Source of the DNA: an uncultured Candidatus Saccharibacteria bacterium
Lineage (GTDB): Bacteria; Patescibacteriota; Minisyncoccia; Phycocordibacterales; CSBR16-119
Reading direction: 5' to 3'
DNA: 64,000 nucleotides
NCBI GenBank assembly: GCA_964589975.1
Contig: CAZPVH010000004.1
Span: forward strand, 10,469-74,468
This document shows positions 362-63,957 of the stretch, one piece after another. The stretch's first letter is position 1. Each line of letters begins with the position of its first letter. Made by a program: the position numbers and the translations under genes. The notes under the pieces are model-generated. The model searched no databases and was not told where the DNA came from. It was given only the letters and a program-made list of their open reading frames with translations.

Positions 362-385
362 CGAACTTTAAACTCCCGGTAATGA

Positions 386-447: not shown

Positions 448-465
448 GTACACAGACCAAAACCC

Positions 466-1077: not shown

Positions 1078-1098
1078 CTCAATCCTGCGCAGAAATGA

Positions 1099-1130: not shown

Positions 1131-1131
1131 T

Positions 1132-1518
1132 TCAATGTTTTACGCGCTGGAACTTCTTATTAAGTGACCTGAAGAAGTCTTTCCCTGTGTCTGAAGCGCC
1201 ACCAGCGGTGAATAGACAAAGAAAGACAGAAGCCATACAGATCTTGGCTACGTTGACTGCCCAGGGAATGGTGTTCAGGTCACCAATTACCCAGAAGGCG
1301 CACGTCACGACCCAAGCCAGAATTCCGCCGGCTATAGCAGTCTCACGCAGATTCCGTTCAGAATGAAGTGCGGCCATGATCGCAGTTATCGTAACCAGTA
1401 CCGCGACAATATTCGCAACATGCGGCCAGGCGTAAAGCCATGAGGTATCCAAGGTAAGCCAGAGGACTGTTGTCAGCGTCTCGTAACGCATAAAGCGACG
1501 ATTGTCGGGTTTCGGCAT
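1132..1518 (-). CDS. hypothetical small integral membrane protein
   Basis: 128 aa with 3–4 predicted TM helices. Confidence 0.5.
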   Translation of the reverse strand: MPKPDNRRFMRYETLTTVLWLTLDTSWLYAWPHVANIVAVLVTITAIMAALHSERNLRETAIAGGILAWVVTCAFWVIGDLNTIPWAVNVAKICMASVFLCLFTAGGASDTGKDFFRSLNKKFQRVKH

Positions 1519-1643
1519 CGGTGGTTGGTTTTTTGCAATACTACAGTATTCTAGTTTTTTGTAAATGACCTTAAATATTCTTTTTCACAATTTTAATTTT
1601 TAAATACTTAATACTGTATACCTAATACTGTATACTTTTAAAC

Positions 1644-3149: not shown

Positions 3150-3176
3150 GGGCTCCGCTACTGCTCCGCTAAAAGA

Positions 3177-3208
3177 GAAAAGCCGCACCTTACGGCGCGG
3201 CTTTTCGA
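3177..3208. terminator. intrinsic terminator (bidirectional)
   Basis: AGCCGCACC-TTAC-GGCGCGGCT hairpin plus T-run between convergent genes. Confidence 0.5.
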
Positions 3209-3249
3209 TCCCGCAGGAGGAAGAGGAGTATGTTTTGCGGAGTACCCCT

Positions 3250-4344
3250 CTAGTACATTTTTTCTAGGATTCCGATTCCATTGATGCCGCTGTTGCCCGT
3301 GCGGATCTCGACGTGAAGGTGTGGTCCAGTGGAGCGTCCGGTTGAGCCAACGCCACCAATGACGTCGCCCTGCTTCACAGTCTGGCCTTGTTTGACAGAA
3401 ATGCTAGAGAGGTGAGCGTAGAGAGTCTGAGTGCCATTGTCGTGTCCGATGATGACGAGTCCGCCGTATCCGCCGTTGTAAGCAGTAGTAGGCTTCACCA
3501 CCATGACGCGACCACTCGCCATTGCCCAGACGGCTGTGCCCGTCTTCGCGCCGATGTCTATAGCTTTATATCGGTCATGAACGCCCTGAGTTTTTACGCC
3601 CTTGACTGGTTTGATGTAGTAGCCGTTTGGAGCTTCCTTTGACGGCGCGCCTTTTGTTGTCGGTTTCTTCGTTTCTGTCGGGGCCTCCATTTCTTCGCCG
3701 TTCGGGATGATGATCTCAGTTCCGACGGCCAAAGCTTCGCCTTCTTCTATACCATTGAAAAGAGAGATTTCGCGGGCGTCAGCTTTGTACTTCTTCGCGA
3801 TGCTTGCAAATGTGTCGCCCTTGGCAACCTTGTGCTTGATTCCGGAGATCGGGAGGATGATAAGCTCCTGGCCAGGTTTTACTGTGCCTTTAACGTCTAT
3901 ATCGTTCGCCCAGCGAATGGTGTTAGGCGAAATTCCGAACATTTCGGCGATCTGGCCCAAAGTGTCGCCCTCGCGGACCGTGTATATAGAGATGTCGTCC
4001 GGGGAAGCGGAAACGATCTTTTCAGCCTCCTTTGTATCAGCGACTGGAGTCGTGTTTGGAACCAGAGCCTCGTCGTCAGTCATTAGAGGGTCCGGGCCGC
4101 CAACGGCGCCTTTCGGATCAGGGCGAGCTTTGGAGTTCAAGAGGGTAAGGGTCTGGGAGTTATAGAGGTTTGTCTCCGGGGAATACAGGTTCTCCTGGTC
4201 AGATCGGGCGACGCTCTGGCTGGAGAGATATGGGAGAACGAAAAAAGCCGCAATAGCTGCCAAAGAAAAACAGGCTTTTTTCGTGAAAAGCCGATTTAAA
4301 AGAGGTTTTTTGATTCCTGCCCCTTTAGCATTGATGGAAGGCAC
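3250..4344 (-). CDS. LysM-domain peptidase M23 (cell-wall endopeptidase)
   Basis: Signal/TM N-terminus; two LysM motifs (YTVREGDTLGQIAEMFGISPNTI, HKVAKGDTFASIAKKYKAD); C-terminal M23 signature GHDNGTQTLYAHL...GSTGRSTGPHLHVE. Confidence 0.85.
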   Translation of the reverse strand: MPSINAKGAGIKKPLLNRLFTKKACFSLAAIAAFFVLPYLSSQSVARSDQENLYSPETNLYNSQTLTLLNSKARPDPKGAVGGPDPLMTDDEALVPNTTPVADTKEAEKIVSASPDDISIYTVREGDTLGQIAEMFGISPNTIRWANDIDVKGTVKPGQELIILPISGIKHKVAKGDTFASIAKKYKADAREISLFNGIEEGEALAVGTEIIIPNGEEMEAPTETKKPTTKGAPSKEAPNGYYIKPVKGVKTQGVHDRYKAIDIGAKTGTAVWAMASGRVMVVKPTTAYNGGYGGLVIIGHDNGTQTLYAHLSSISVKQGQTVKQGDVIGGVGSTGRSTGPHLHVEIRTGNSGINGIGILEKMY

Positions 4345-8926: not shown

Positions 8927-10858
8927 TACCTCGAAGGCCTAAACGATCGGCAGAAAGAGGCCGTCCTTCATAAGGACGGCCCTTTGCTCATTGTCGCTGG
9001 CGCGGGCGCGGGGAAGACAAAGACTATCACACACAGGATTGCGTACCTCATCGAGCAAGGTGTGCCGGGAGAACAAATTCTTGCCGTAACCTTCACAAAC
9101 AAAGCCGCCAAAGAGATGAATGAGCGCGTGCAAAGCTTGGTAGCACTGCCGGATTTCGCCGGGAGACCGACTATTTGTACATTTCACTCGCTGGGTGTCA
9201 GGATCCTTAAAGAAAACGCTAGAGCACTCGGACTTTCGCGATTTTTCCCAATCATGGATGACGATGACAGTATGTCTCTCATTAAAGAATCCATGAAAGA
9301 GCTCGGCATTGATCCGAAGACTGTTTCGCCTCGTTCGGTTCGCTCATTCATCTCGCGCTCGAAGAATGATTTTTTATCGGAGCAGGATTTCTCCGATCAG
9401 AATGTGAAGTCGTATCAGCAAGCCATCAATCTTTCTGTTTGGAAAAAATATGAAGAGAAGAAAAAAGCCGCAGGAGGACTTGATTTTGACGACCTCTTGC
9501 TCGAGACAACAAAGCTTCTTCAGAAGAATCCAGAAATACTCGCGGTATATCATGCTCGCTGGAGATACATTCATGTGGATGAGTATCAAGACACGAATAA
9601 AGTGCAGTATGTGCTGACGCAGCTCCTTGCCAAGGCGAGCCGGAACATCTGTGTGGTTGGTGATGGTGACCAAAATATTTACAGTTGGCGTGGTGCCGAC
9701 ATTGTAAACATCTTGAACTTCGAGAAGGACTATCCCGACGCTAAAGTGGTACTACTCGAGGAGAATTATCGCTCGACGAAGACGATACTTCACGCGGCGA
9801 ACTCAGTTATAAAGAAGAATAAAGAACGAAAAGAAAAGAATTTATTTACATCAAACGATGATGGTGACATGGTCTCACTTTTTGAAGCCTATAACGATAG
9901 AATCGAAGCTGAATTTGTGGCCGAGAAATGCGTCGAGCTCATGGATAAAGGAATTAAGCCGGAAGACATTGCCGTTCTTTATCGCGCGAACTTCCAGTCG
10001 CGTCTTCTGGAAGAAAAGATGCTCACATATTCCGTGCCTTATCAGGTACTTGGGGTTAAATTCTTTGATCGAAGAGAGGTGAAAGATGTTTTGTCGTACC
10101 TGCGGCTCGCGTTTAATCCGAATTCCTCTGTCGATATCCGCCGGGCAATATCTTTCCCAAAGCGCGGGCTCGGGAAAGTCGCTGTCGAGAAAATCCTTGC
10201 AGGAGAAAAGGATAAATTACCGATGAAGACACTTATAAAAGTGAATCAGTTTTTTGAATCTATCGAAAAGATGCGCGAATATGCCGAATCGCATCTTCCA
10301 TCAGAGACGTTGAAGTATGTCATCAAAGCTTCCGGCATAGAAGCGGAACTAAAAGCCGGGAAGTCTGACGACGATATCGACCGGCTTGAAAATGTCATGG
10401 AAATGGTTTCGTTCGCAGCTAAATATGACAGTTTTCCACCGATCGAGGGTATTGAAAAACTTATCGAAGAAGCGAGTCTTGCATCTGATCAGGATTCGCT
10501 CTCGTCCGAAGGCGAGGCGAAGAAAGAAAAGAATAAGCGTGGTGTGAAGCTTATGACCGTGCATGCCTCAAAGGGGCTCGAGTTTAAATACGTGTTCATC
10601 GTCGGACTTGAAGGCGAGCTTTTTCCGCATGTCCGCGACGACATGTCGGATATCGAAGAAGAGCGCCGCTTGTTTTACGTTGCCATTACGCGCGCTCGCG
10701 AGAAACTGTTCCTGACTTACGCCACGCTTCGCCAGCTTTTTGGTGAGACCAAACTCCAAATGCCGTCGCAGTTCCTAAATGATGTCCCGCAGGAAATACT
10801 TTTCCGCGAGGAAAGGGAGTCGAGCGGGTTTGGGAATAATGTGATATATCTAGATTGA
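8921..10858 (+). CDS. uvrD: UvrD/PcrA-family ATP-dependent DNA helicase
   Basis: GAGAGKTKT Walker A; helicase motifs TFHSLG, VDEYQDTN, VGDGDQNIYSWRGA, YRS; C-terminal motif VHASKGLEF...LFYVAITRA. Confidence 0.85.
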   Translation: MNYLEGLNDRQKEAVLHKDGPLLIVAGAGAGKTKTITHRIAYLIEQGVPGEQILAVTFTNKAAKEMNERVQSLVALPDFAGRPTICTFHSLGVRILKENARALGLSRFFPIMDDDDSMSLIKESMKELGIDPKTVSPRSVRSFISRSKNDFLSEQDFSDQNVKSYQQAINLSVWKKYEEKKKAAGGLDFDDLLLETTKLLQKNPEILAVYHARWRYIHVDEYQDTNKVQYVLTQLLAKASRNICVVGDGDQNIYSWRGADIVNILNFEKDYPDAKVVLLEENYRSTKTILHAANSVIKKNKERKEKNLFTSNDDGDMVSLFEAYNDRIEAEFVAEKCVELMDKGIKPEDIAVLYRANFQSRLLEEKMLTYSVPYQVLGVKFFDRREVKDVLSYLRLAFNPNSSVDIRRAISFPKRGLGKVAVEKILAGEKDKLPMKTLIKVNQFFESIEKMREYAESHLPSETLKYVIKASGIEAELKAGKSDDDIDRLENVMEMVSFAAKYDSFPPIEGIEKLIEEASLASDQDSLSSEGEAKKEKNKRGVKLMTVHASKGLEFKYVFIVGLEGELFPHVRDDMSDIEEERRLFYVAITRAREKLFLTYATLRQLFGETKLQMPSQFLNDVPQEILFREERESSGFGNNVIYLD

Positions 10859-52877: not shown

Positions 52878-52913
52878 TAGGTAACAGGAAACAGGTTACA
52901 GGTTACAGAAAAG

Positions 52914-52939
52914 AAAGCGCCCCGCAAGGGGCGTTTTCC
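52914..52939 (+). terminator. intrinsic terminator after rplB
   Basis: AAAGCGCCCCGCAAGGGGCGTTTTCC; its position interrupts the usual rplB-rpsS cotranscription. Confidence 0.65.
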
Positions 52940-52966
52940 CATTCCTACATTTGTTATAATCCTCAC

Positions 52967-53590
52967 ATGAAACTCAATTTCAAATATGACCAAGAGAAAG
53001 ATGTAGAGAACTTCATCAAATCTGCCAAATCCGTAAACAGCAAGAAGCCGACAGGCGTCATGCAGAAATATATTGATATTTACGGAGAGAGCTTTGAGAC
53101 AGAAAAACTAAACGAATTCATTACGGAAATGTTAAATGGTGTAGATGTAAACCAAATCATTTCAGATATTACGGCGAAGTGGTCAGCCATGGAAGATGAA
53201 TTCATCATGCGCTCAGAAAAGATCTTCGGCTGCAAATATCAGGTGGAGGAAGTGACGGTATTCCTTACGACGAATTCCAGATGTACATATAATACGCTTG
53301 AGAAATATTTTTTCGTGAGCATTCCACGGGCAGATGTAGCGCATGTGACGATCATGCATGAGCTTTTACATTTCTATACGAAAGAAGCATTCGAGGATTT
53401 CATACCAAAAGAAAAATACAATGATATAAAAGAAGCGCTTACGGTCTTACTAAACGTAGAATATGCTGACCTGATGGGGGATAAAAAAGACGAAGGATAT
53501 CCTCAGCATACGCAAATGCGCCAGAAAATCATCGACTTGTGGTTAGAAGGCAAAAATATGAAGGAAATAGTGGCTATTTTGGCCGGTTAA
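52967..53590 (+). CDS. hypothetical protein with HExxH motif (putative zinc-dependent hydrolase)
   Basis: 207 aa, VTIMHELLHFYTKEAF; TGtTATAAT-N6-ATG leaderless-type promoter. Confidence 0.5.
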   Translation: MKLNFKYDQEKDVENFIKSAKSVNSKKPTGVMQKYIDIYGESFETEKLNEFITEMLNGVDVNQIISDITAKWSAMEDEFIMRSEKIFGCKYQVEEVTVFLTTNSRCTYNTLEKYFFVSIPRADVAHVTIMHELLHFYTKEAFEDFIPKEKYNDIKEALTVLLNVEYADLMGDKKDEGYPQHTQMRQKIIDLWLEGKNMKEIVAILAG

Positions 53591-53595
53591 TTTTC

Positions 53596-53624
53596 TTGAC
53601 TTATACTTATAAATATGGTATGAT
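53596..53624 (+). promoter_or_regulatory. sigma70-like promoter TTGACT-N17-TATGAT with about 75-nt hairpin-containing leader
   Basis: Canonical spacing; the leader contains TTTGGTTGGTTG...CAACCAACTAAA inverted repeat. Confidence 0.4.
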
Positions 53625-53701
53625 ATAATTAGATAGGGGTTTGGTTGGTTGCTATAGGAGGTTTAATAAGCCTTTTATAACAACCAACTAAATCTTGAAA
53701 A

Positions 53702-53953
53702 ATGACTGGCTACGAAGTCTGCATGGTAGTCCTTGCCCTGTGTGTCGCTTTTCTTGGCCTCACTCTCTTTCTCTACATCAAGACAGGTGACGGTGGCAAC
53801 TGGGAATGGTTTTTTAGTAAGTCATACAGAAAGGAATTTGAATGGCAGAGGCACAAATGGGAGCGTTTTCGCTACCTTAGTCAGGACTATGAAGGTGAGG
53901 AAGTCCCTCCTACAGTAAAGAGCGCGAATGACGATAACGATGACTGCGACTAG
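53702..53953 (+). CDS. small membrane protein, Trp-rich with acidic tail
   Basis: 83 aa with one TM helix and C-terminal NDDNDDCD. Confidence 0.45.
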   Translation: MTGYEVCMVVLALCVAFLGLTLFLYIKTGDGGNWEWFFSKSYRKEFEWQRHKWERFRYLSQDYEGEEVPPTVKSANDDNDDCD

Positions 53954-53999
53954 GAAAGGTGGCCGGTTTGGGTGAATAACTCAGACCGGCTTTTCGTTT

Positions 54000-54491
54000 A
54001 TGTCATATGCTAAAATAATTACCATGATGACGCGACGCCAAAAAGTCTGGAGGAACAGAATCATTGTCTTTTTCATTTTTCCGCTAGCCGTAATCCTGCC
54101 TATTGTTTTGATAGACAAGAAGCCTGTAGATGAGAGAGGGGTTGAGGTCCCAGAAGGTCTTGAGCTAAATGAACAGGGGTTTTTGGTTGAAAAAACTGAT
54201 GGAGGTCCAACCGTGGAAGAAGAAACGGCTTGGGCTACTGCGGAGAATGGTTTACCAGCAGGTTGGGCTATTTGGTCTGATGAGATTAGCGGAAGGCCAG
54301 TAGAGAAGTATGCACCGGTAAAAGACATGCCAAGTTTTGTTGTAAAAATAGAGGCTACCATTACTGACAAACTTGTTCGTCCTTACGAGTGTGTTGGTCC
54401 AGATGATGTGGTGTTCTGTGTCGTAGGGAATAATCCTGACGTCCTGCGTTATTTTAAAGTCCTTAAGTACTATTACGAACCAGAAGAATAA
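54000..54491 (+). CDS. membrane-anchored hypothetical protein
   Basis: 163 aa with an N-terminal TM helix. Confidence 0.5.
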   Translation: MSYAKIITMMTRRQKVWRNRIIVFFIFPLAVILPIVLIDKKPVDERGVEVPEGLELNEQGFLVEKTDGGPTVEEETAWATAENGLPAGWAIWSDEISGRPVEKYAPVKDMPSFVVKIEATITDKLVRPYECVGPDDVVFCVVGNNPDVLRYFKVLKYYYEPEE

Positions 54492-54501
54492 AGACTCGGG
54501 G

Positions 54502-55005
54502 TTGACGGATACCTTGCTTGATGATAGAAAGGAATTAAACAAGCACTCAAACAAAAGAAGAATGAAGAAAGTATTAGGCATCGACTGCGGGAATGTGATC
54601 CTCTGTCAGATGAACGGCACTCCGGTACAGGGAAGTGTCGAAGCTATCCGGTCCATCGTAGATTCCGGAATGTTCCACGACATCTGGCTGGTGTCGAAGT
54701 GCGGCCCGCGCGTGCAATCGCTTACCCGCGAATGGCTCGCGAATCTTGATTTCTGGAAGCGAACCGGCATAAAGGGTAGCAATATCGAATTCTGCCTGAA
54801 GTTCTGGGAAAAGGGACCGATCTGCGAGCGCCTCGGCGTAACGCATTTCATCGATGATCGGCCGAAAGTACTGAACTGTCTGACTACGGTCGGAACGCTC
54901 TATGCTTTCAATCCTGAACCACGCTCATTGTCGGACTATCAGCGTCCGAACCCCATGATCGTTGTACGCTCATGGGATGAACTCTTGAAGGATCTATTCA
55001 AATAG
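54502..55005 (+). CDS. HAD-superfamily-like hydrolase (5'(3')-deoxyribonucleotidase-like)
   Basis: VLGIDCGNVI (degenerate motif I) and THFIDDRPKV (motif IV-like); low confidence. Confidence 0.4.
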   Translation: MTDTLLDDRKELNKHSNKRRMKKVLGIDCGNVILCQMNGTPVQGSVEAIRSIVDSGMFHDIWLVSKCGPRVQSLTREWLANLDFWKRTGIKGSNIEFCLKFWEKGPICERLGVTHFIDDRPKVLNCLTTVGTLYAFNPEPRSLSDYQRPNPMIVVRSWDELLKDLFK

Positions 55006-55013
55006 ATCAAAAA

Positions 55014-55040
55014 CCACCGGCCATTGGCCGGTTTTGTGTT
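55014..55040 (+). terminator. intrinsic terminator
   Basis: CCGGCCATTGGCCGG palindrome plus a T-rich tail. Confidence 0.6.
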
Positions 55041-55091
55041 TTCATTGCAATTAATTAAGCAGCAGAGTAGACTTTTTTCAAAACTGAACCA

Positions 55092-55514
55092 ATGGCAAAA
55101 AAGAAAACTCCACGCATGACATATTCGTTCATGGTAGAGGCAACTAAGACAGGCTTTTCGGCTCATTCACTGCAATACGGCGCTGTTGTCGCAACAACAG
55201 GCGATACATTGGAGCAGCTCCGAACAAATGCCGCCGCGGCGATCAATCTGACTGGTAAAGCCAAAGGAACGGTGTCTGCCTGGGATATTTGCCTCAGTAT
55301 GGATGTGCGAACCTTTTTCAAGGGTAACAGGATCCTGAAGGTAGGACCTCTGGCGAAGCGGATCAATATGGACTCTACGCTTCTCTCTCAGTATGTGAGC
55401 GGCAAGAAGAAACCATCCGAAGCACAGATTGCGAGGATTACAGCCGGTATCAGAGAAATAGCCACTGAACTCTCAACGATCTCGTTTCTGGTTCCACAGA
55501 AGAAGCCTGGGTAA
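55092..55514 (+). CDS. HicB-like antitoxin-fold protein with C-terminal XRE-type HTH (orphan; no hicA nearby)
   Basis: N-terminal UPF0150/HicB-like segment TYSFMVEATKTGFSAHSLQYGAVVATTGDTLEQL; C-terminal INMDSTLLSQYVSGKKKPSEAQIARI, an HTH. Confidence 0.45.
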   Translation: MAKKKTPRMTYSFMVEATKTGFSAHSLQYGAVVATTGDTLEQLRTNAAAAINLTGKAKGTVSAWDICLSMDVRTFFKGNRILKVGPLAKRINMDSTLLSQYVSGKKKPSEAQIARITAGIREIATELSTISFLVPQKKPG

Positions 55515-55530
55515 CAACCCGGGCTTTCTG

Positions 55531-55559
55531 TTTGACATATAAAACCCTATCTGCTAGTA
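55531..55559 (+). promoter_or_regulatory. sigma70-like promoter TTGACA-N17-TAGTAT restoring transcription of rpsS-...-rplE
   Basis: 25 of 29 nt identical to the promoter at 59922–59949 (shared AAAACCCTATCTGCTA core). Confidence 0.6.
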
Positions 55560-55565
55560 TCCTCT

Positions 55566-55660
55566 CATTCGGCCTTTTGGCCCGAATTTTTTTGAAAAGT
55601 AAATATTGAGATGGCGGTGAGCCCGAAGGCGACTTCGGAACCACGACCTAGCCATGTATA
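55566..55660 (+). promoter_or_regulatory. leader region with terminator-like hairpin plus T7 run and a 17-codon uORF (possible attenuator)
   Basis: ATTCGGCC-TTTT-GGCCCGAAT followed by TTTTTTT; downstream ATG GCG GTG AGC ... TAT TGA (MAVSPKATSEPRPSHVY) contains a second hairpin CCGAAG-GCGA-CTTCGG. Confidence 0.3.
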
Positions 55661-55677
55661 TTGATTTTCGTACTTAA

Positions 55678-56040
55678 ATGACACGATCACTTAAAAAAGG
55701 TCCATACGTAGATATAAAGCTATTGAAAAAAATAGCTGGAAAGAAGCCCCAAGCAACTGGGGTTATTAACACGTGGGCGCGCGCGTCCCAGATCGCTCCT
55801 GAAATGGTCGGGTTCGTTTTTGGCGTGCACAACGGCCGCGAGCACATCAAAGTCCTTGTTTCTGAAGACATGGTCGGACACAGGCTCGGCGAATTTTCTC
55901 CGACCCGTAAGTTCCACCGACATGGCGGTAAGCTAATGAAGGAGCTTGAGCAGAAGAAGAAAGAGGGCGAGGTCGCTGCCGCGCAGGCTGCAAAGGCTGC
56001 CGCTGACGCTGGGTCATCTAAGACGCCAGCTAAGAAATAA
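55678..56040 (+). CDS. rpsS: 30S ribosomal protein S19
   Basis: SLKKGPYVD...HNGREH...GHRLGEF, plus a K/A-rich C-terminal extension. Confidence 0.95.
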
Positions 56041-56042
56041 TT

Positions 56043-56495
56043 ATGAAAGCCATACTTAAAAACTATCGGCAGTCTCCACGGAAGGTTCGCCTGGTGGCTA
56101 GATCTGTGCGCGGAAAGACTCCGGCGCAGGCTCTCATGATTCTTGATTTCATGCCAAAGCGTGCTGCTGAACCAATAATGAAACTCATCGTTTCAGCTGT
56201 TGCGAATGCTAAAGTAAATAACAACGTAGACGTTGCCGACCTTATCATCAAAGGCATTGAGATAAATGGTGGTGTAACCCTCAAGCGTTTCCGACCGCGA
56301 GCACGAGGCTCTGCATACCGCATCAACAAACGCACCAGCCACATCGTGGTGACTTTGGACAAGAAGCCTGGAAAGGGTGGCGTTGTCGCCGAGGCTCCAA
56401 AGGCTGAGGCTAAAGTCGCGAAGCCAGCAGCAGCAAAAAAAGCTGCGCCGAAAAAGGCGGCGGTAAAGAAAGCGGTTAAGAAAAAGGCCGAATAA
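56043..56495 (+). CDS. rplV: 50S ribosomal protein L22
   Basis: L22 core plus an AKP/KKA-rich C-terminal extension. Confidence 0.93.
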   Translation: MKAILKNYRQSPRKVRLVARSVRGKTPAQALMILDFMPKRAAEPIMKLIVSAVANAKVNNNVDVADLIIKGIEINGGVTLKRFRPRARGSAYRINKRTSHIVVTLDKKPGKGGVVAEAPKAEAKVAKPAAAKKAAPKKAAVKKAVKKKAE

Positions 56496-56499
56496 TTTT

Positions 56500-57186
56500 A
56501 TGTCAAAGAAAGTAAACCCATATTCACATAGACTAGTAGTTCTCCGAGATTGGAAATCTCGCTGGTTTTCTACGGGCAAGAAATTCGCCGAGACTCTAAA
56601 GGCGGATATCCTCATCCGAGACTTCTTGAAGAAGAAGCTTCGCGCCGCTTACATTTCATCTGTTGAGATTGAGCGTTCTCGAAAGGGAGCTAGAATCATC
56701 ATCAAGACTTCACGACCTGGCGTCATCATTGGCCGCTCTGGCGAAGGCGCAAAGAAGCTCCGCGAGGATATATTGAAAATGATGAAGAAGGCTGGTCTTC
56801 CAGTTCTCGAGGAGATGAAGATCGATATTCAGGAAGTTACAAATCCTGACGCAGACGCTCAGATCGTTGCGTATTCTATTGTCGAAGGCCTAGAGAAGCG
56901 ACTTCCGTTCAAGCGTGTTATCAAAATGACTCTTGAAAAGGTCATGGCGTCGCGCGAGGTAAAGGGTGCTCGAATTGTCGTCTCCGGACGATTGAACGGC
57001 GCTGATATGGCTCGTCGAGAGGAAGTTAAGCAGGGCTCGATCCCTCTTCAGACTCTCCGCGCCGATGTCGACTTTGCTCGAGAGCGAGCAGTTCTCTCAT
57101 ACGGAACTCTCGGTATCCGCGTTTGGATTTACCGAGGAGAAGTCTTCGAGAAAGATCGCGCTAATTCAGCCGCTAGGAATAAATAA
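56500..57186 (+). CDS. rpsC: 30S ribosomal protein S3
   Basis: KH domain and the S3 C-terminal domain (GRLNGADMAR). Confidence 0.95.
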   Translation: MSKKVNPYSHRLVVLRDWKSRWFSTGKKFAETLKADILIRDFLKKKLRAAYISSVEIERSRKGARIIIKTSRPGVIIGRSGEGAKKLREDILKMMKKAGLPVLEEMKIDIQEVTNPDADAQIVAYSIVEGLEKRLPFKRVIKMTLEKVMASREVKGARIVVSGRLNGADMARREEVKQGSIPLQTLRADVDFARERAVLSYGTLGIRVWIYRGEVFEKDRANSAARNK

Positions 57187-57196
57187 CTAAACTTTT

Positions 57197-57622
57197 ATGC
57201 TTTTCCCTAAGAAAGTAAAATTTAGAAAGTGGCAGACAGGCCGGAAAAATCCGGAGAAATTGAAGCGCCCAGATACGCGCGGAAACTCTGTCGACTTCGG
57301 ATCATATGGTCTCAAAGCTGAGTCCATGGCTCGAGTCACTTCTGCTCAGATCGAGTCTGCTCGAAAGGCTATGGTTCGCCACCTCACAAAGGAGGGTAAG
57401 ACCTGGATTCGAATTTTCCCTGATCGTCCTATAACGGCCAAGGCCGCAGAGGTGGGTATGGGTAAGGGTAAAGGAGACCTGAAGGGCTACTGTTTCGAAG
57501 TTCACCCAGGCCGCATCATTTTCGAAGCTGACGGCGCTACACCTGAACTCTGCAAAGAAGCTCTCAGGAAAGCCGGAACGAAATTGCCGTGCAAGACCCG
57601 CGTAGTTGCGAGAAATAAATAA
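57197..57622 (+). CDS. rplP: 50S ribosomal protein L16
   Basis: KKVKFRKWQTGR..., RMGKGKG. Confidence 0.95.
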   Translation: MLFPKKVKFRKWQTGRKNPEKLKRPDTRGNSVDFGSYGLKAESMARVTSAQIESARKAMVRHLTKEGKTWIRIFPDRPITAKAAEVGMGKGKGDLKGYCFEVHPGRIIFEADGATPELCKEALRKAGTKLPCKTRVVARNK

Positions 57623-57631
57623 AACTGTAAT

Positions 57632-57817
57632 ATGGCAAATATTGACCTAAAATCAAAGAAAGTCGAGGATCTCGTAAAGGAGATGAATGAAGCGGCTCTG
57701 GATCTACAGAAATCCCGCTTTAACGTCGCCGGCACGAAGAGCCAGAGAGCGAACCCATCAAAGCTCAGGAAGACGATCGCTCGGATAAAGACCGAGCTTC
57801 GCTCCCGAAATAAATAA
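57632..57817 (+). CDS. rpmC: 50S ribosomal protein L29
   Basis: 61 aa, coiled-coil, conserved position. Confidence 0.9.
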   Translation: MANIDLKSKKVEDLVKEMNEAALDLQKSRFNVAGTKSQRANPSKLRKTIARIKTELRSRNK

Positions 57818-57822
57818 ACTAT

Positions 57823-58071
57823 ATGGAAACAACGAACAAAAAACCAAAGACACTCCAGGGTACAGTCGTGAAAGACGGTAATGATAAGACTGTGGTCGTT
57901 TCCGTGCCTCGCTTCGTTAAGCACCCTAAATACCAGAAGTTCTTCAAGAAGGACAAGCGCTACCAGGCTCACGATGAGGCTAACGCTTACAAAGTGGGGG
58001 ACAAGGTAGAGATGGTAGAAGGAAAGCCGAAGTCTAGGACCAAGCGCTTTACCGTAACTAAAAAGATTTAA
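57823..58071 (+). CDS. rpsQ: 30S ribosomal protein S17
   Basis: GTVVKDGNDKTVVV...KYQKFFKKDKRYQAHDE. Confidence 0.93.
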   Translation: METTNKKPKTLQGTVVKDGNDKTVVVSVPRFVKHPKYQKFFKKDKRYQAHDEANAYKVGDKVEMVEGKPKSRTKRFTVTKKI

Positions 58072-58074
58072 TTT

Positions 58075-58446
58075 ATGTTGCAAGACGGATCAAATGTAAA
58101 AATCGCGGATAACGGAGGCGGAACAGACGCCAGGATCTTCAAAGTTCTTGGCGGTTCTAAACGCCGCTACGCCGAAATCGGCGACTTGGTCGTGATCGCG
58201 GTCAAGAAGGCTCAGCCTCGAAAGATGATCAAGAAGAAAGACGTTCATCACGCTATCGTCGTCCGCCAGCAGAAGCCATTTCGGCGAAAGGACGGATCAT
58301 ATATCTCTTTTGACGACAATGCAGTGGTCATCATCGAAAAGGGCAAGTTTGAGCCAAAGGCTGGACGCATCTTCGGTCCTATTCCTAGAGAGATCGGCGA
58401 GCTCGGTTATCAGAAGATCGTGTCATTAGCCCCTGAGGTTCTATAA
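58075..58446 (+). CDS. rplN: 50S ribosomal protein L14
   Basis: MLQDGSNVKIADNGG...IGDLVVIAVKKA. Confidence 0.95.
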   Translation: MLQDGSNVKIADNGGGTDARIFKVLGGSKRRYAEIGDLVVIAVKKAQPRKMIKKKDVHHAIVVRQQKPFRRKDGSYISFDDNAVVIIEKGKFEPKAGRIFGPIPREIGELGYQKIVSLAPEVL

Positions 58447-58450
58447 TTTT

Positions 58451-58666
58451 ATGAAAATCAAGAAAGGCGACAATGTAAAAGTCCTCACGGGAGGAGACAA
58501 AGGAAAGACTGGCAAGGTCACGCAGGTTTTGCGCGAGGAAAACCGCGTCGTTGTCGAGGGCGTAAATGTCCGAAAGGTCCACAAGAAGAAGACAGCCGGA
58601 AAAGCTGGCTCAATCATCGAAGTCGCCATGCCAATCAACGCTTCTAATGTCGCCGTCGTAAAATAA
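58451..58666 (+). CDS. rplX: 50S ribosomal protein L24 (short form)
   Basis: KOW motif IKKGDNVKVLTGGDKGKTGKV; 71 aa. Confidence 0.88.
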   Translation: MKIKKGDNVKVLTGGDKGKTGKVTQVLREENRVVVEGVNVRKVHKKKTAGKAGSIIEVAMPINASNVAVVK

Positions 58667-58677
58667 TTTTTAATACC

Positions 58678-59217
58678 ATGGAAACAACAAAGCAAAAACT
58701 AGCAAAAGCCTACGAAGTTCTGAAGCCTAAGTTCGGCTACAAGAATTCTTTGTCATCCCCAAGACTTCTAAAGGTCGTTGTTTCTTCCGGCACAGGCTCA
58801 AAGATGAAGAACGACAAGAACAAGAATGAATTCATCGCCGGCCGCCTCGGTAAAATCACCGGCCAGAAACCATCGCCTCGCCAGGCTAAGCAGTCCATTG
58901 CTTCCTTTAAGCTCCGACAGGGAGAAGTTATCGGCCAGATGGTCACGCTTCGCGGCGAGCGCATGTATGCCTTCGTCGATAAGCTCATCAACATTGCTTT
59001 CCCCCGAACGAAAGACTTCCGCGGACTCGAGTCAAAGGGAATCGATGACGTTGGAAACCTGACAATCGGCATCAAAGAGCACACGATCTTCCCGGAAACA
59101 GGGGACGAAGAGCTCAAGGATGTCTTCAGCCTCGCCATCACTTTTGTCACTACTGCGAAAAATAAAGAAGAAGCAAAAGCGTTCTTCGATTATCTCGGAA
59201 TCCCGTTTAAGAAATAA
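58678..59217 (+). CDS. rplE: 50S ribosomal protein L5
   Basis: PRLLKVVVSSGTG...FKLRQGEVIG...GIKEHTIFPE. Confidence 0.95.
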   Translation: METTKQKLAKAYEVLKPKFGYKNSLSSPRLLKVVVSSGTGSKMKNDKNKNEFIAGRLGKITGQKPSPRQAKQSIASFKLRQGEVIGQMVTLRGERMYAFVDKLINIAFPRTKDFRGLESKGIDDVGNLTIGIKEHTIFPETGDEELKDVFSLAITFVTTAKNKEEAKAFFDYLGIPFKK

Positions 59218-59229
59218 ATTTAATGAAAC

Positions 59230-59265
59230 AAAAGCTCTCGTTTGACGAGGGCTTTTGTTTTTTGG
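59230..59265 (+). terminator. intrinsic terminator after rplE
   Basis: AGCTCTCGT-TTG-ACGAGGGCT hairpin plus a T-rich run; breaks the usual rplE-rpsN linkage. Confidence 0.6.
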
Positions 59266-59634
59266 GCGATTGGTGTAAGGTGGGGCAAAACTTTATCCAT
59301 GGAAAAGCTACAAGAAGTCCTTGAACACCTGACTCGGATCAAAGAAGTTCGTCGCCGCAACAGTCCCTTTGGTCTTCCACCCGGAGAGTCTCCCAAATTC
59401 TTTAGCAACGAAGAAGGGCAACTGAATGAAAGGTTGGAAAGACATATCGGTGCTCTAGCCGAACATCTAAGTGACTTTGTAGCCCTGCGGAACCAGCTTG
59501 GCAGAGAATCATATGAAAAAGTTCTTGCCGATACGAAGAAGACCTTGGTTAACCTTGTCTGTGACGCTATTTGGATGGTCCATGGCTATGATGTGACAGC
59601 CGAAGAGATCTTTGCCGCCATTCCAGAGAAATGA
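59242..59634 (+). CDS. hypothetical protein inserted between rplE and rpsN
   Basis: 130 aa (or 111 aa from the ATG at 59301); helical, no confident family assignment. Confidence 0.45.
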   Translation: MTRAFVFWAIGVRWGKTLSMEKLQEVLEHLTRIKEVRRRNSPFGLPPGESPKFFSNEEGQLNERLERHIGALAEHLSDFVALRNQLGRESYEKVLADTKKTLVNLVCDAIWMVHGYDVTAEEIFAAIPEK

Positions 59635-59646
59635 AGCCCGCAGCAG

Positions 59647-59680
59647 AAAGCCCGTTCGCGGGCTTTCTTGTTTTTAGAAA
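59647..59680 (+). terminator. intrinsic terminator
   Basis: AAAGCCCG-TTCG-CGGGCTTT, a perfect 8-bp stem with a UUCG loop, plus CTTGTTTTT. Confidence 0.7.
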
Positions 59681-59685
59681 TAAGT

Positions 59686-59895
59686 GTGATAATCTCTCTC
59701 CTAGAAGCTTCAACAACTCTGCCCTGAATAAACCTACCAAAACAGGAAATAAAAGGGATAACAGAGGGCGCAAGGATGTGCCATGAGTTGGAAGGTTTAG
59801 ACCCTTCGGACTCTACGTCCAAACAGTTCTCTAGGTACAAATTGTAGCTTGGGCTTTAGGGGCGCTTTTGGGCGCCCCTTCTCTTTTTCCTTGCC
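59686..59895 (+). ncRNA. candidate small RNA (about 200 nt) with its own extended -10 promoter and terminator
   Basis: TGTGATAAT at 59685–59693; C-UUCG-G tetraloop hairpin; terminal hairpin GGGGCGC-TTTTGG-GCGCCCC followed by TTCTCTTTTT; no ORF longer than 30 codons. Confidence 0.25.
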
Positions 59896-59921
59896 CGTCC
59901 GTAGACTCTGGCGTAGGCGGG

Positions 59922-59949
59922 TTGACATAAAATCCCTATCTGCTAATAT
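59922..59949 (+). promoter_or_regulatory. sigma70-like promoter TTGACA-N16-TAATAT restoring transcription of rpsN-...-secY
   Basis: Near-duplicate of the promoter at 55531–55559. Confidence 0.6.
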
Positions 59950-60038
59950 GCCCTTGTCCCGTTCAATCCCCGTATCTCCTTCTTGGCCCAAAGGACCCGG
60001 AAGCAAATATAGGCGATATTAGCGGGGCGTTAAAAAAT

Positions 60039-60308
60039 ATGGCTAAAAAATCAGTTACAGCGCGAAATAACAAGCGCATCAAACTTCATGCAAAGTACGC
60101 CAAAAAGAGGGCGGAACTTAAGGCTGCCGGAGACTACGAAGGCCTCCAGAAGCTTCCAAAGAACTCCTCTCCATCACGCCTGAAGAACCGATGCGGTATC
60201 ACCAGCCGTCCGCGAGGCTATATGCGTGATTTTGGACTTTCTCGCATCAAGTTCCGAGAGCTCGCGTCAGTCGGCGAGATTCCGGGCGTAAGGAAGTCAT
60301 CCTGGTAA
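60039..60308 (+). CDS. rpsN: 30S ribosomal protein S14 (long, non-zinc type)
   Basis: 89 aa, [28 protein letters not shown]. Confidence 0.93.
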
Positions 60309-60314
60309 TTCTAT

Positions 60315-60704
60315 ATGGATAAGATTGCAAACATGCTCATAATGCTGAAGAACGCGGGAATTGCCGGCAAGCCTCTTGTTGTTGTTCCTCATTCAGCTCT
60401 AAAGGAAGCCATCGGACAGTGCCTAGTGAAGGGTAAATTTGTCGAGAAGGTTTCAAAGAAGACTCTCGAAGGAAACAAGGCGGTTCTTGAAATCACTCTC
60501 CTCCGCACAGGACGCGAGCCTCGTATTACACAGGTAGAGCGAATCTCAAAGCCTTCAAAGCGAGTGTATATCAAAGCAAAAGACATTAAGCCTGTCCGCC
60601 AGGGATACGGCATGATGGTGCTTTCGACTCCGAAAGGCGTTTTGATCGCGGACGATGCTCGCAAAGAATTGGTCGGCGGTGAAGCTCTATTCCGAATCTG
60701 GTAA
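60315..60704 (+). CDS. rpsH: 30S ribosomal protein S8
   Basis: DKIANMLIMLKNA...GMMVLSTPKGV. Confidence 0.95.
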   Translation: MDKIANMLIMLKNAGIAGKPLVVVPHSALKEAIGQCLVKGKFVEKVSKKTLEGNKAVLEITLLRTGREPRITQVERISKPSKRVYIKAKDIKPVRQGYGMMVLSTPKGVLIADDARKELVGGEALFRIW

Positions 60705-60714
60705 TCATAAATAT

Positions 60715-61251
60715 ATGTCACGAGTTGGTAAACAAATCCTAAAGGTTCCCGCTGGCGTCGAGCTATCACTCGCCGGAGGCAATTTGACTGTCAAAGGTCC
60801 GAAAGCTACTCTCGCGCGCCCATTCAAAACAAACATCATTGATATAAAGATCGATAATGGCGAAGTTTCTTTTGTTCCAAAGAACGAAGAGAATTCCACG
60901 AAGGCTCTCTGGGGAACATACGCTTCTCATGTTCGAAACATGATCAAAGGCGTTACTGACGGATACGAAAAGAAGCTCGAACTCGAAGGAGTCGGCTTCA
61001 AGTCTGAAGTTCAGGGTACGAACCTAAAGTTCGCACTCGGCTTCTCTCATCCGGTTATCATGCCGATCCCAGAAGGCCTCAAAGTTACTGCGGAAAAGAA
61101 CCTCATCACGGTGAGCGGAGCGGACAAGGAGCTTGTCGGCGAATTCAGCGCAAATGTCCGAGGCAAGAAGCCGCCTGAGCCGTACAAAGGGAAGGGTATC
61201 CATTACCAGGGCGAATACATCCGCCGCAAGCAGGGCAAGAAAGCCGTCTAA
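60715..61251 (+). CDS. rplF: 50S ribosomal protein L6
   Basis: MSRVGKQILKVPAGV...; start set at the internal ATG after the rpsH stop, because the ORF-track start at 60655 overlaps rpsH. Confidence 0.93.
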   Translation: MSRVGKQILKVPAGVELSLAGGNLTVKGPKATLARPFKTNIIDIKIDNGEVSFVPKNEENSTKALWGTYASHVRNMIKGVTDGYEKKLELEGVGFKSEVQGTNLKFALGFSHPVIMPIPEGLKVTAEKNLITVSGADKELVGEFSANVRGKKPPEPYKGKGIHYQGEYIRRKQGKKAV

Positions 61252-61260
61252 AATAATTTT

Positions 61261-61611
61261 ATGCAAGCTAGAAAACAAAGGCAATCAAGGCGAGACAGAA
61301 TCAAGCGAAAGATCCGCTCAAAGGTGGCTGGTTCGGCTATGCGACCACGTCTTTCGGTGTACCGCTCAAACAAGAATATCTACGCTCAGATCATCAACGA
61401 TGAGACTGGCACGACTATTGTTTCCGCTTCTGATATCAAGACAAAGACTGGTACCAAGCGAGACAGGGCTATCGAGGTTGGTAAAATTATTGCCAAGCTC
61501 GCAAAGGATGCTGGCGTGACCGCGATCGTTTTCGACAGGAACGGCTTTAATTACACAGGTCGGATCAAGCTTTTGGCAGACAGCGCCCGCGAGGGAGGTT
61601 TAACCTTTTAA
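61261..61611 (+). CDS. rplR: 50S ribosomal protein L18
   Basis: RPRLSVYRSNKNIYAQIIND... Confidence 0.93.
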   Translation: MQARKQRQSRRDRIKRKIRSKVAGSAMRPRLSVYRSNKNIYAQIINDETGTTIVSASDIKTKTGTKRDRAIEVGKIIAKLAKDAGVTAIVFDRNGFNYTGRIKLLADSAREGGLTF

Positions 61612-61619
61612 TCAATTAT

Positions 61620-62225
61620 ATGGACGAAGTAAAACCAACAACATCAACAGCATCAGAAGGGCAGAAGCCGGCGTCTTCGTATCGAGGAGGCGGAAAGTCT
61701 TTTGACCGTGGAGGTTCGCGAGGCGGACGACGCCCAGTCGAGCGCCGCGAGAAGCCTGAATTCGACCAGAAAATTCTCTCAATCCGACGTGTTACCCGTG
61801 TTGTTTCCGGCGGACGACGATTCTCATTCTCCGTCACTATGCTTGTTGGAGACAAGAAAGGCCGAGTGGGTCTTGGACTTGGGAAATCTGCGGACACAAC
61901 TCTTGCTATTAATAAGGCTGTGGCATCTGGCAAGAAGCACATGATCACGGTCCGAACGACTCCTGATATGTCTATCTCTCACTCAGTCGAAGGAAAGTTC
62001 AAGGCTTCTCGCGTCATGCTCATGCCAAACAAAGGCAAGGGTCTCGTTGTCGGCGGTGCTATCCGCGACATCATCGTCCTCGCCGGGCTCAAGAACATTA
62101 CAGGCAAGATCTTCTCCCGCTCAAAGACTCATCTCAATAACGCCAAGGCCGCAATGAATGCCCTTCAAGATCTCAAAGCGCCAAAGAAAGTAAAGGTCGC
62201 TGCGCCGGCTGAAGTAGCAGAGTAA
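61620..62225 (+). CDS. rpsE: 30S ribosomal protein S5
   Basis: S5 dsRBD and C-terminal domain (RVTRVVSGGRRFSF, GLGLGKS) with an R/G-rich N-terminal extension. Confidence 0.95.
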   Translation: MDEVKPTTSTASEGQKPASSYRGGGKSFDRGGSRGGRRPVERREKPEFDQKILSIRRVTRVVSGGRRFSFSVTMLVGDKKGRVGLGLGKSADTTLAINKAVASGKKHMITVRTTPDMSISHSVEGKFKASRVMLMPNKGKGLVVGGAIRDIIVLAGLKNITGKIFSRSKTHLNNAKAAMNALQDLKAPKKVKVAAPAEVAE

Positions 62226-62234
62226 TAAAATTTT

Positions 62235-62684
62235 ATGCAAACTAATAATCTAGTTCGAAAAACGAAGAACAAGAAGACAAAGCTCATCGGCCGAGGCGGC
62301 AAGAGGGGCAAGACTTCTGGACGCGGAACAAAAGGACAGTGGGCTCACGGCAGCCACGGCGTCCGTCCTGAGATGCGAGACATCGTCAAGAAGTTCCCGA
62401 AACTCCGCGGACACGGAAAGAACCGCGGACGCACGGTTAATTCTTCTGTCGTTCGCGAGACTCCAATCAATCTTTCCACGCTTGAAGAGAACTTCAAAGC
62501 AGGGGACAAGGTCACCTTGGACGCGCTACTTGAGAAGAAGCTCGTGAATAAATCCGGTGGCAAGAATCCGTCAGTAAAGATCTTGGCCGGTGGTGAAATA
62601 TCTAAGAAGCTTTCAGTCATCGGCTTCAGCATGTCGGCCGCAGCGCGAGCCGCTATCGAAAAAGCCGGCGGCGAGGTAAAATAA
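62235..62684 (+). CDS. rplO: 50S ribosomal protein L15
   Basis: GRGGKRGKTSGRGTKGQ...; directly follows rpsE with no L30 gene between them. Confidence 0.93.
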   Translation: MQTNNLVRKTKNKKTKLIGRGGKRGKTSGRGTKGQWAHGSHGVRPEMRDIVKKFPKLRGHGKNRGRTVNSSVVRETPINLSTLEENFKAGDKVTLDALLEKKLVNKSGGKNPSVKILAGGEISKKLSVIGFSMSAAARAAIEKAGGEVK

Positions 62685-62688
62685 ACCC

Positions 62689-63957
62689 ATGTCTTTTTGG
62701 CAAAAACTTAAAATAGTATTCACAGATAAATACATCAGGAGAAAGATAATCTTCGTTCTTCTTATTTTGGCGGTCTTCCGTCTCTTGGCGGCAATTCCGA
62801 TTCCAGGAGTTGATGCATTTCGTCTTCAGGGATTTTTGGACTCTAACCAGTTCCTGGGACTACTCAACATCTTTTCTGGGGGCGGACTTTCAGCGCTTTC
62901 CATTGTCATGATGGGCGTTGGTCCATACATCACATCTTCCATCATTATGCAGCTTTTGACGTTGATGTCTCCGCGTCTCAAGTCTATGTATCACGAAGAA
63001 GGAGCCGAAGGGCGACTTCGTTTTTCACAGTACGCTCGTTACTTGACCGTTCCATTGTCTCTAATCCAGGCATACGCACTGCTCGCCATATTGGCAAGCC
63101 AAGGAGTCTTGGAGCCACTTTCAGCCTACGATAAAGCCATCGCCATGATTGTTGTTACGGCTGGATCAATGCTTCTTGTATGGCTTGGTGAGCTCATAAC
63201 AGAAAGGGGAATTGGCAACGGTGTGTCGGTGCTTATCTTTGCAGGTATTGTCGCAGCTCTGCCAGCCTCCATCAGTCAGCTCGCTTTCACATATGATCCG
63301 TCACAGCTCGTAATGTACATTGGTTTCTTGGCTGTTACTGTTGTGCTCATCGCCGGTATTGTTGTTATTACTGAGGCGGAGAGACTTCTTCCAATCACTC
63401 ATACGAAACAGGCTAGAGCAGGCGGGGCTATGACTTCTCAGTCTTCATATCTTCCGCTTCGCATAAATCAGGCCGGTGTGATGCCAGTTATCTTCGCTCT
63501 TTCAGTTCTAATGTTCCCGCAGCTTATAGCTAATTTCTTTGTTAATTCTTCTCACGCTTGGCTTCAGTCTGTAAGTCAGGGGCTCACATGGTTCCTCGCA
63601 GAGCAGTGGCTCTACGCGGCGGTTTACTTCCTCCTCGTATTCCTCTTTACTTACTTCTACACGGCGGTGACTTTTGACCCGGAAGCTGTGGCGACGAATC
63701 TTCAGAAGAACGGCGCTTTCGTTCCAGGTATCAGACCGGGACAATCAACGACAGAATATATTGGCAAGATTGTGAGTCGGATCACTTTTATGGGCGCGAT
63801 CTTCTTGGGTGTCATAGCAGTTCTACCAATCGTTATGCAGCAGCTTACGGGTCTTCAGACTCTTGCGATTGGAGGCACGGCAGTGCTCATCGTTGTCTCA
63901 GTTATCCTTGATATCTTGAAGAAGGTAGAAGGCCAAGTGTCAATGCGTCAATACTAG
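62689..63957 (+). CDS. secY: preprotein translocase subunit SecY
   Basis: 422 aa with 10 TM helices and conserved SecY motifs (GIGNGVS, plug region). Confidence 0.95.
   Translation: MSFWQKLKIVFTDKYIRRKIIFVLLILAVFRLLAAIPIPGVDAFRLQGFLDSNQFLGLLNIFSGGGLSALSIVMMGVGPYITSSIIMQLLTLMSPRLKSMYHEEGAEGRLRFSQYARYLTVPLSLIQAYALLAILASQGVLEPLSAYDKAIAMIVVTAGSMLLVWLGELITERGIGNGVSVLIFAGIVAALPASISQLAFTYDPSQLVMYIGFLAVTVVLIAGIVVITEAERLLPITHTKQARAGGAMTSQSSYLPLRINQAGVMPVIFALSVLMFPQLIANFFVNSSHAWLQSVSQGLTWFLAEQWLYAAVYFLLVFLFTYFYTAVTFDPEAVATNLQKNGAFVPGIRPGQSTTEYIGKIVSRITFMGAIFLGVIAVLPIVMQQLTGLQTLAIGGTAVLIVVSVILDILKKVEGQVSMRQY

Follow-up and report, generated by a model that had tools for sequence, protein, structure and literature searches.

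Ribosomal protein S8 binds 16S ribosomal RNA (rRNA) at helix 21, where a helix with a conserved asymmetric loop carries a (G597–C643)–U641 base triple and a 595–(596–644) triple and where the invariant A642 stacks on a Ser-Thr-Ser peptide of the protein (PMC4176348). SELEX with S8 accepted 597/641/643 combinations that are isosteric with the natural triple, the Bacillus anthracis S8–aptamer complex uses an A–U pair with a U, and a C596–G644 pair is present in Thermus (PMC4176348). In Escherichia coli the S8 operator of the spc operon lies at the start of rplE (PDB entry 1S03) and places A80-A81-G82-U83-C84 opposite G6-A7-A8-A9-C10-U11 of rplE (sequence verified; numbering from PMC4176348). The structure of this operator has been reported to be confined to Gammaproteobacteria (PMC3616713), and a 2024 review stated that it was not known how B. 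subtilis and other species regulate the spc genes and that phylogenetic studies had brought no advance (PMC10931766). Leaders that mimic rRNA have also been described for L1, L10, L20, S4 and S15, with further candidates from Eckert and Weinberg in 2020 (PMC7247131); in word searches of that paper, Parcubacteria, rpsN and uS8 did not occur, and no ribosomal leader described for the candidate phyla radiation was found in the searchable literature. The present analysis concerns a conserved hairpin leader in the 5′ untranslated region (UTR) of rpsN, located on a stretch of 64 000 nucleotides (contig CAZPVH010000004.1, positions 10 469–74 468, forward strand) from a Patescibacteria genome assigned to the class Paceibacteria (Parcubacteria). 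This whole stretch is referred to as the window and its positions are used throughout.

The window contains the ribosomal cluster tuf–rpsJ…secY, which is interrupted at two places: between rplB and rpsS, by four non-ribosomal open reading frames (ORFs; 52967–55514), and between rplE and rpsN. The leader stands at the second of these interruptions. It is probably an S8 autoregulatory operator situated at an ancestral terminator–promoter boundary that tolerates gene insertions, S8 being proposed as the ligand from the architecture of the leader core. The leader and the unit to which it belongs comprise the following features (E. coli 16S numbering in parentheses for the core).

59922–59949, + strand: rpsN promoter, with −35 TTGACA at 59922–59927, a 16-nucleotide spacer, TG at 59941–59942 and −10 TAATAT at 59944–59949.
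59957–60027, + strand: conserved hairpin leader of rpsN, about 70 nucleotides, with an S8/helix-21-like core (covariance model R1).
C59964 (595), A59965–U60020 (596–644), A59966–U60019 (597–643): core of the leader in the window.
U59967–A60016 (598–640), C59968–G60015 (599–639), unpaired U60017 (641) and A60018 (642): core of the leader, continued.
60039–60308, + strand: rpsN (ORF list; Pfam S14), which opens the downstream unit.
60315–60704, + strand: rpsH (ORF list; Pfam S8), which encodes the proposed ligand S8.

The 5′ UTR of rpsN was alignable across the clade and takes the form of one long hairpin consisting, in order, of an outer stem, an asymmetric core loop, a 6 bp helix, a UCUCC/AAGAA internal element, a second helix and a variable tip. 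A covariance model (R1) was built from a MAFFT alignment of 41 sequences, in which 86% of the pair cells were standard (67% after shuffling), 21 of the 25 pairs had changed on both sides and pairing fell to 36–48% when the partners were slid by 1–3 columns. In an alignment of 51 sequences 87.9% of the cells were paired (67.1 ± 0.9% after shuffling), both sides had changed in 23 of the 25 pairs and sliding the partners by 1–3 columns left 35–50% paired. R1 returned one full-length plus-strand match per locus, always before rpsN; fifty-one of these scored 40–82 bits and a dozen loci outside the seed alignment were included. The single match in the 64 kb window was at 59945–60040 (61.4 bits, E = 9e-11). 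A regular-expression match to the leader motif at 28937 was dropped, as it lay within coding sequence and the covariance model did not report it; an exact scan of the viral contigs with the leader pattern gave no match. The internal element, UUUCUCCUU opposite AAG-A-A, is near-invariant (47–51 of 51; window 59974–59982 and 60003–60008, alignment columns 30–38 and 88–93); it is more conserved than pairing needs, includes C/A mismatches and resembles an anti-Shine–Dalgarno sequence.

Judged by its conserved nucleotides and pairs, the leader core has the architecture of the S8 site in 16S helix 21. The invariant form is xRAUC/GAUAUy, with the U and the A unpaired. Across the 51 leaders the pair equivalent to 598–640 is U–A without exception and that equivalent to 599–639 is C–G in 50; position 641 is U in 50 and position 642 is A in all 51, both standing unpaired between two covarying helices. 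The pair 596–644 occurs as GC (32 leaders), AU (17) and CG (two) and the pair 597–643 as AU (48) and GC (three), and neither is unpaired in any leader. The E. coli helix 21 sequence …UAAGUC…/…GAUACU… was confirmed in E. coli genomes, AGUC/GAUACU being the E. coli form, and the leaders of L027, L040 and L068 carry exactly AGUC/GAUACU or CGUC/GAUACG. The latter is the Thermus form. It is plausible that an A–U pair at 597–643 is acceptable to S8. A continuous AUC/GAU register of the core, which RNAalifold preferred, was rejected, as only the S8-like register gives perfect covariation of the 596–644 columns. Homology of the whole leader to helix 21 was also rejected, the leader model having no match on E. 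coli 16S rRNA.

The leader is located on the mRNA that encodes S8. It was found before rpsN in 49 of the 49 leader-bearing loci that reach rpsN, and rpsH came after rpsN in every locus where the two genes could be placed. Between the end of the outer stem and the AUG lie a median of 24 nucleotides (range 10–135; 12 in the window). From its alignment the S8 of the window is a normal S8, which matches solved S8 structures over its full length and keeps the RVY and LSTPKGV motifs. The S14 of the window, like that of L086 and of L008, has 89 residues and one cysteine (the L005 protein is identical to that of the window), and nine other translated relatives have the 61-residue CxxC…CxxC zinc-ribbon form. 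The leader is kept with both types of S14, and S14 was considered the less likely ligand, since the leader is unchanged across the switch. Upstream of the start codons of rplX, rplE, rpsN and rpsH (genes read within 55670–62700) the sequence is A/U-rich with no recognisable Shine–Dalgarno sequence.

According to the mechanism proposed here, rplE would end its own transcription unit, with a terminator behind it in the window lineage, and rpsN–rpsH–rplF…secY would be transcribed from their own strong promoter (59922–59949), the transcript starting at about 59956, at the foot of the hairpin leader. Free S8 exceeding the available 16S rRNA would bind the mimic in the leader and would thereby stabilise the hairpin, the base of which lies 10–35 nucleotides from the AUG in most genomes and adjoins an AU-rich initiation region without a Shine–Dalgarno sequence. 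On the model of the E. coli spc operator, initiation at rpsN would be lowered and, through coupling, so would that of the downstream genes. Genomes in which the hairpin lies more than 60 nucleotides from the AUG would need another mode, such as RNA decay or a second structure.

The interval that precedes the rpsN unit, together with the promoter of rpsS, contains the following features.

58678–59217, + strand: rplE (L5; ORF list; the identical public gene call has Pfam Ribosomal_L5 and L5_C), which closes the rpsS–rplE transcription unit.
59226–59266, + strand: intrinsic terminator after rplE (inverted repeat 59226–59241/59245–59260, 16-nucleotide arms, 94% complementary, T-run).
59299–59634, + strand: orphan cargo ORF (ATG start, 111 amino acids; public gene call); read from a TTG, 59242–59634 gives 130 amino acids.
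59645–59676, + strand: intrinsic terminator after the orphan ORF (stem 59645–59668, 10 bp, then TGTTTTT).
59677–59891, + strand: lineage-specific non-coding insert, containing TGTGATAAT at 59685–59693 and a terminator at 59858–59879 with a T-run.
59892–59921, + strand: 30-nucleotide element before the −35 (90% identity with L004/L005 over 30 nucleotides).
55532–55560, + strand: rpsS promoter (promoter scan; relatives carry one at this position, with the consensus TTGACtTTATTTTTAnATTTGCTAGTAT).

A first-pass annotation, made from the letters of the window alone, had described a break of the ribosomal cluster between rplE and rpsN. This break is real: rpsN has its own promoter, which is kept in ~50 related loci. 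In the promoter scan the window promoter matched ten of the 12 hexamer positions and carried the TG extension (form TTGACA-16-TGCTAATAT), and 50 loci have a promoter of the same type immediately before the leader, with the consensus ATCTGCTAGTAT conserved at 70–100% per position. The 59892–59921 element, directly upstream of the −35, is G+C-rich and partly self-complementary and is absent in L006. The closest relatives available were L004 and L005 (identical S14, ~81% nucleotide identity over rpsN–rplF); L006 has an L5 identity of 88%. The best L5 identity in the species-level genome set was 88%, in which most of the closest L5 proteins were 62–70% identical; the metagenome-assembled genomes that hold them are labelled Patescibacteria, Paceibacterota, Nomurabacteria or, as a (mis)label, Saccharibacteria. 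The window sequence is also present in public assemblies.

The distance between rplE and rpsN was compared in 80 species-level genomes and 80 metagenome contigs and varied from almost nothing (<100 nucleotides) to over 3 kb. The stretch from the rplE stop to the leader was shorter than 150 nucleotides in 20 of the 52 leader-bearing loci (rpsN promoter and leader being present in these 20), 150–500 nucleotides in six and at least 500 nucleotides in 26. Minimal rplE–rpsN gaps hold just the promoter, in several cases with a short terminator after rplE too; the larger ones carry unrelated genes, among them adk, gmk, truB, genes for helix–turn–helix (HTH) and Gp49-like proteins and many others without a family. 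The rplB–rpsS gap is likewise variable (5–3368 nucleotides), with a clade-wide promoter before rpsS. In distant relatives (L5 identity of about 55% or less) rplE and rpsN are adjacent and the promoter and leader elements are lacking. The rplE/rpsN junction is therefore best read as an ancestral operon boundary of the Paceibacteria clade and not as a recent accident. To judge from their placement, the rpsN and rpsS promoters are older than the insertions of the window genome, because both sit at the same positions clade-wide, including in minimal gaps. Insertions into the gap would be tolerated because the boundary was already transcriptionally autonomous: with a terminator, a promoter and an operator, it would make DNA inserted between them non-polar and so provide a variable slot. 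It is about an even bet that the fuller statement holds, namely that the leader is a true S8 operator of independent Paceibacteria origin with a second invariant element (UCUCC/AAGAA), and that, with the clade-wide terminator and promoter, it makes rplB/rpsS and rplE/rpsN, two junctions within the best-conserved gene cluster of bacteria, non-polar landing sites at which unrelated genes are inserted, exchanged and lost. No description of clade-wide, refilled ribosomal boundaries was found in a limited literature search.

Both S8 as the ligand and translational repression as its effect are what we infer, and several observations weigh against them. The position equivalent to 595 is variable (U 24, A 16, C 6, G 4) and the pair 597–643 is A–U in 48 of the 51 leaders, whereas the rRNA site in the literature has G–C at this place. 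With its filters off the whole-leader model still failed to find helix 21 of E. coli 16S rRNA, the likeness being that of a core of about 11 nucleotides, and the near-invariant UCUCC/AAGAA element, which bears no relation to the S8 site, could be where the true ligand binds. Moreover, in eight of the 49 loci the stem ends more than 60 nucleotides before the AUG (up to 135); therefore, simple occlusion cannot be universal. The variable 595, the A–U pair, the failure to find helix 21 and the additional invariant element would all suit a real rpsN leader with a different ligand (L6, L18, S5, L15 or S14) or a protein-free 5′ stabiliser or pause site. Such a leader is a possibility to be kept in mind but an unlikely one, as the most conserved nucleotides match the S8 core one for one (U598, C599, G639, A640, U641 and A642), the two flanking pairs covary with zero mismatches in 51 sequences, the exact rRNA sequence occurs in three lineages and the leader persists across the change of S14 type.

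Two further explanations concern the interval upstream of the leader rather than its ligand. The resemblance of the rpsN promoter to the rpsS promoter, given by the first-pass annotation as 25 of 29 positions with the latter at 55531–55559, had been put down to copy-paste of a promoter module that rescued the downstream ribosomal genes. The resemblance itself was confirmed (about 26 of 29 columns identical with one gap, the rpsS promoter lying at 55532–55560), and the two promoters have in common an exact 16-mer, CCCTATCTGCTANTAT, that has no further occurrence in the window. Of the 23 positions of the spacer plus −10, 18 are identical in the window pair; the cross-genome mean is 12.6 ± 2.9, the value of 18 is reached by 5% of 8106 cross-genome pairs and it is the highest of 22 within-genome pairs, the other 21 sharing 9–17. 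The window rpsS promoter also departs from the usual rpsS spacer (TTTATTTTTAnATTT) and resembles the rpsN type. These figures are what would be expected had one promoter recently arisen as a modular copy of the other, through duplication or gene conversion once insertions had split the cluster, but we consider this improbable. Both promoters are found at the same two positions across the clade, cargo-free genomes included; 12 of the positions that they share belong to the clade consensus ATCTGCTAGTAT, the two promoter families having in common TTGAC-N17-ATyTGCTAGTAT with 12 positions conserved at 50–100%; CCyTATCTG spacers also occur in the rpsN promoters of other genomes, e.g. L013 and L019; and the leaders downstream of the two promoters are unrelated. 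On this comparison the resemblance mainly reflects the common ribosomal promoter consensus of the clade, and a little extra similarity may have been added, e.g. by gene conversion. The rescue itself could not be upheld, as the promoter is present in insertion-free relatives and rpsS has its own clade-wide promoter; the idea has cause and effect reversed. The other explanation, also proposed in the first-pass annotation, makes the roughly 200-nucleotide segment between the orphan ORF and rpsN an independently transcribed, lineage-specific small RNA (59685–59889) that runs from an extended −10 promoter to the terminator at 59858–59879. The segment is indeed without coding signal (59669–59895 contains no ORF with such a signal and the codon scores are negative in all six frames), and the strong terminator at its 3′ end was borne out, with a 9 bp stem including seven G–C pairs followed by TCTCTTTTTC; this is the third intrinsic terminator of the rplE–rpsN interval and lies on the same strand about 190 nucleotides downstream of TGTGATAAT. 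The segment also folds somewhat more stably than shuffled sequences (z = −2.5 with the terminator, −2.2 without it), but the opposite strand folds almost equally well (z = −1.6). Of the predicted extended −10 box, the motif at 59685–59693 is present but has no −35 element, and its pattern, TGNKATAAT, is at chance frequency (seven in the window, 3.5 ± 2.1 expected). The C-UUCG-G hairpin that had been noted within the segment (59804–59809) is stemless: it has a single closing pair, the next would be C59803/A59810 and the minimum-free-energy fold places its bases in another helix. A search of the whole window against Rfam 15, which covered the proposed small RNA at 59686–59895, gave zero matches at the gathering score; with E up to 10, 59150–60100 gave sub-threshold matches only, mostly to terminator stems and none inside the rpsN leader hairpin, and a scan for transfer RNA and transfer–messenger RNA gave no match. 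In blastn and tblastx searches with 59669–59921 the related loci yielded the same strain only, plus the 30-nucleotide promoter-proximal piece; the segment had no similarity in 165 related loci, in 50 697 phage records or in 72 556 plasmid records, and an exact 24-nucleotide pattern from it had no match in the viral contigs, which were searched by exact patterns. L004 and L005 have a different upstream gene, the same terminator and 35 unrelated bases in place of the ~220 nucleotides, followed by the 30-nucleotide element, the promoter and the leader, while L006 has a related terminator and about 100 unrelated bases before the promoter and leader. Both flanks are thus kept where the piece is missing, and the segment is unconserved in close relatives while rplE and rpsN stay split. 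A small RNA at this place is very improbable, and on present evidence the 200-nucleotide stretch should not be annotated as one. By comparison with these relatives, 59677–59891 was inserted in this lineage between two elements that are conserved. Judged by its lack of conservation and of coding signal, the piece is most likely filler or a scar left by cargo turnover. The terminator at 59858–59879 would shield the rpsN leader and the downstream unit from read-through.

The remaining features of the rplE–rpsN interval agree with the first-pass annotation in outline. The terminator that it had placed after rplE was confirmed by the 16-nucleotide inverted repeat and the T-run, and the sub-threshold Rfam matches at this position were all to terminator stems. 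The 3′ half of this terminator, GGGCTTTTGTTT, is also present after rplE in L006 and L007, in which long inverted repeats (L006 3541–3700, L007 3541–3666) are inserted where the window has the simple terminator, with GGGCTTTTGTTT retained. The 130-residue orphan ORF with a terminator of its own was likewise recovered; its more plausible start is not the TTG at 59242 but the ATG at 59299, which gives a product of 111 residues. This product matched only itself among 5.8 billion protein clusters and when 1.84 billion representatives were scanned in full with phmmer, and it has no Pfam, PHROG or PADLOC family. The codon signal of the ORF is weak (0.047 in frame versus 0.043 antisense), and a single-sequence AlphaFold2 model of the product was all-helical with low confidence (predicted local distance difference test score of 62.7). 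By these searches it is a genuine orphan, at the level of a predicted ORF. The terminator behind it is near-identical in L005 (GAAAGCCCGTTCGCGGGCTTTCTTGTT) and related in L006, in each case behind an unrelated ORF (window 59632–59676, L005 217–258, L006 about 5700–5735), and between the window and L005 the identity starts exactly at the cargo stop codon (TGAAGCCCGCA…). In sequence terms the pattern looks like a gene replaced with its flank retained.

The rplB–rpsS slot (window 52878–55677) holds orf207, orf163, orf167 and the HTH-like orf140. A HELLH motif is present in orf207 (window 52967–53590), which has a 43%-identical homologue in L086 at 10161–10799; the family occupies the rplB–rpsS gap in the window and the rplE–rpsN gap in L086, so that the same cargo family is found in either slot. 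Extended −10 motifs, TGTTATAAT (52952–52960) and TGATATAAT (53621–53629), lie upstream of cargo genes, and the former ends seven nucleotides before the ATG of orf207, a spacing suggestive of a leaderless mRNA. Downstream of the four ORFs, the rpsS 5′ UTR (window 55561–55677; L086 about 6385–6500) has a terminator-like hairpin and U7 just after the predicted transcription start (55568–55593) and continues with a conserved GAGAUGGCGGUGA, a hairpin and ACACGACCUAGCCAUG; each of the two hairpins shows covariation between the window and L086. This rpsS leader was found in two of 107 loci only (the window and L086) and may represent an attenuator or else a second leader of the ribosomal-protein kind. 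Most relatives (loci L009–L165) have the rpsS promoter TTGACtTTATTTTTAnATTTGCTAGTAT, and a mini-hairpin, GAGCUC-N4-GAGCUU, with a U-rich tract lies downstream of the promoter and just before the rpsS AUG in 47 of the 107 loci.

If the S8 operator proposed here is true, an S8 autoregulatory RNA would for the first time be known from outside Gammaproteobacteria, and the candidate phyla radiation would have its first described ribosomal-protein leader; the same rRNA mimic would also have been convergently reinvented elsewhere in the operon. The balance of spc-operon proteins outside Gammaproteobacteria is an acknowledged gap, for which the leader offers a compact and cheaply testable case in an uncultivated, genome-reduced phylum. 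The boundary explains the interruption of a normally inviolable cluster, which matters for annotation and for marker-gene phylogenomics that rely on ribosomal synteny.

Compared with helix 21 of 16S rRNA (E. coli nucleotides 595–599 and 639–644), the leader is likewise a helix interrupted by an asymmetric loop, and both have U598–A640, C599–G639, unpaired N641–A642 and Watson–Crick pairs at 596–644 and 597–643; the leader differs in that 595 is not conserved, 597–643 is usually A–U and the surrounding helices are unrelated. The leader and the E. coli spc operator both lie on the mRNA that encodes S8, and the cores of both imitate helix 21. The same logic would be expected by analogy, surplus S8 repressing the translation of rpsN–rpsH and of the genes downstream. 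The position is different, however: the leader lies in the rpsN 5′ UTR at the start of a separate transcript, whereas the E. coli operator spans the start codon of rplE within a longer operon. So is the topology, the leader being a plain hairpin with the strand order of rRNA and the E. coli operator being permuted, with long-range strands. The 597–643 pair is mostly A–U instead of G–C, the invariant UCUCC/AAGAA is extra, and the leader has neither sequence homology to the E. coli operator nor an Rfam match. By analogy, the leader would thus work like the S8 operator without being a member of the E. coli family. With the leaders known to mimic rRNA (L1, L10, L20, S4, S15 and the 2020 candidates) it shares conservation, covariation and a position upstream of ribosomal protein genes, as well as conserved nucleotides like those of the rRNA binding site. 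The boundary at which it stands resembles the internal promoters and breaks known from the S10–spc–alpha cluster, in that a long conserved ribosomal cluster is subdivided by additional promoters or terminators; unlike those breaks, the rplB/rpsS and rplE/rpsN boundaries described here are clade-wide and have repeatedly been filled with unrelated genes.

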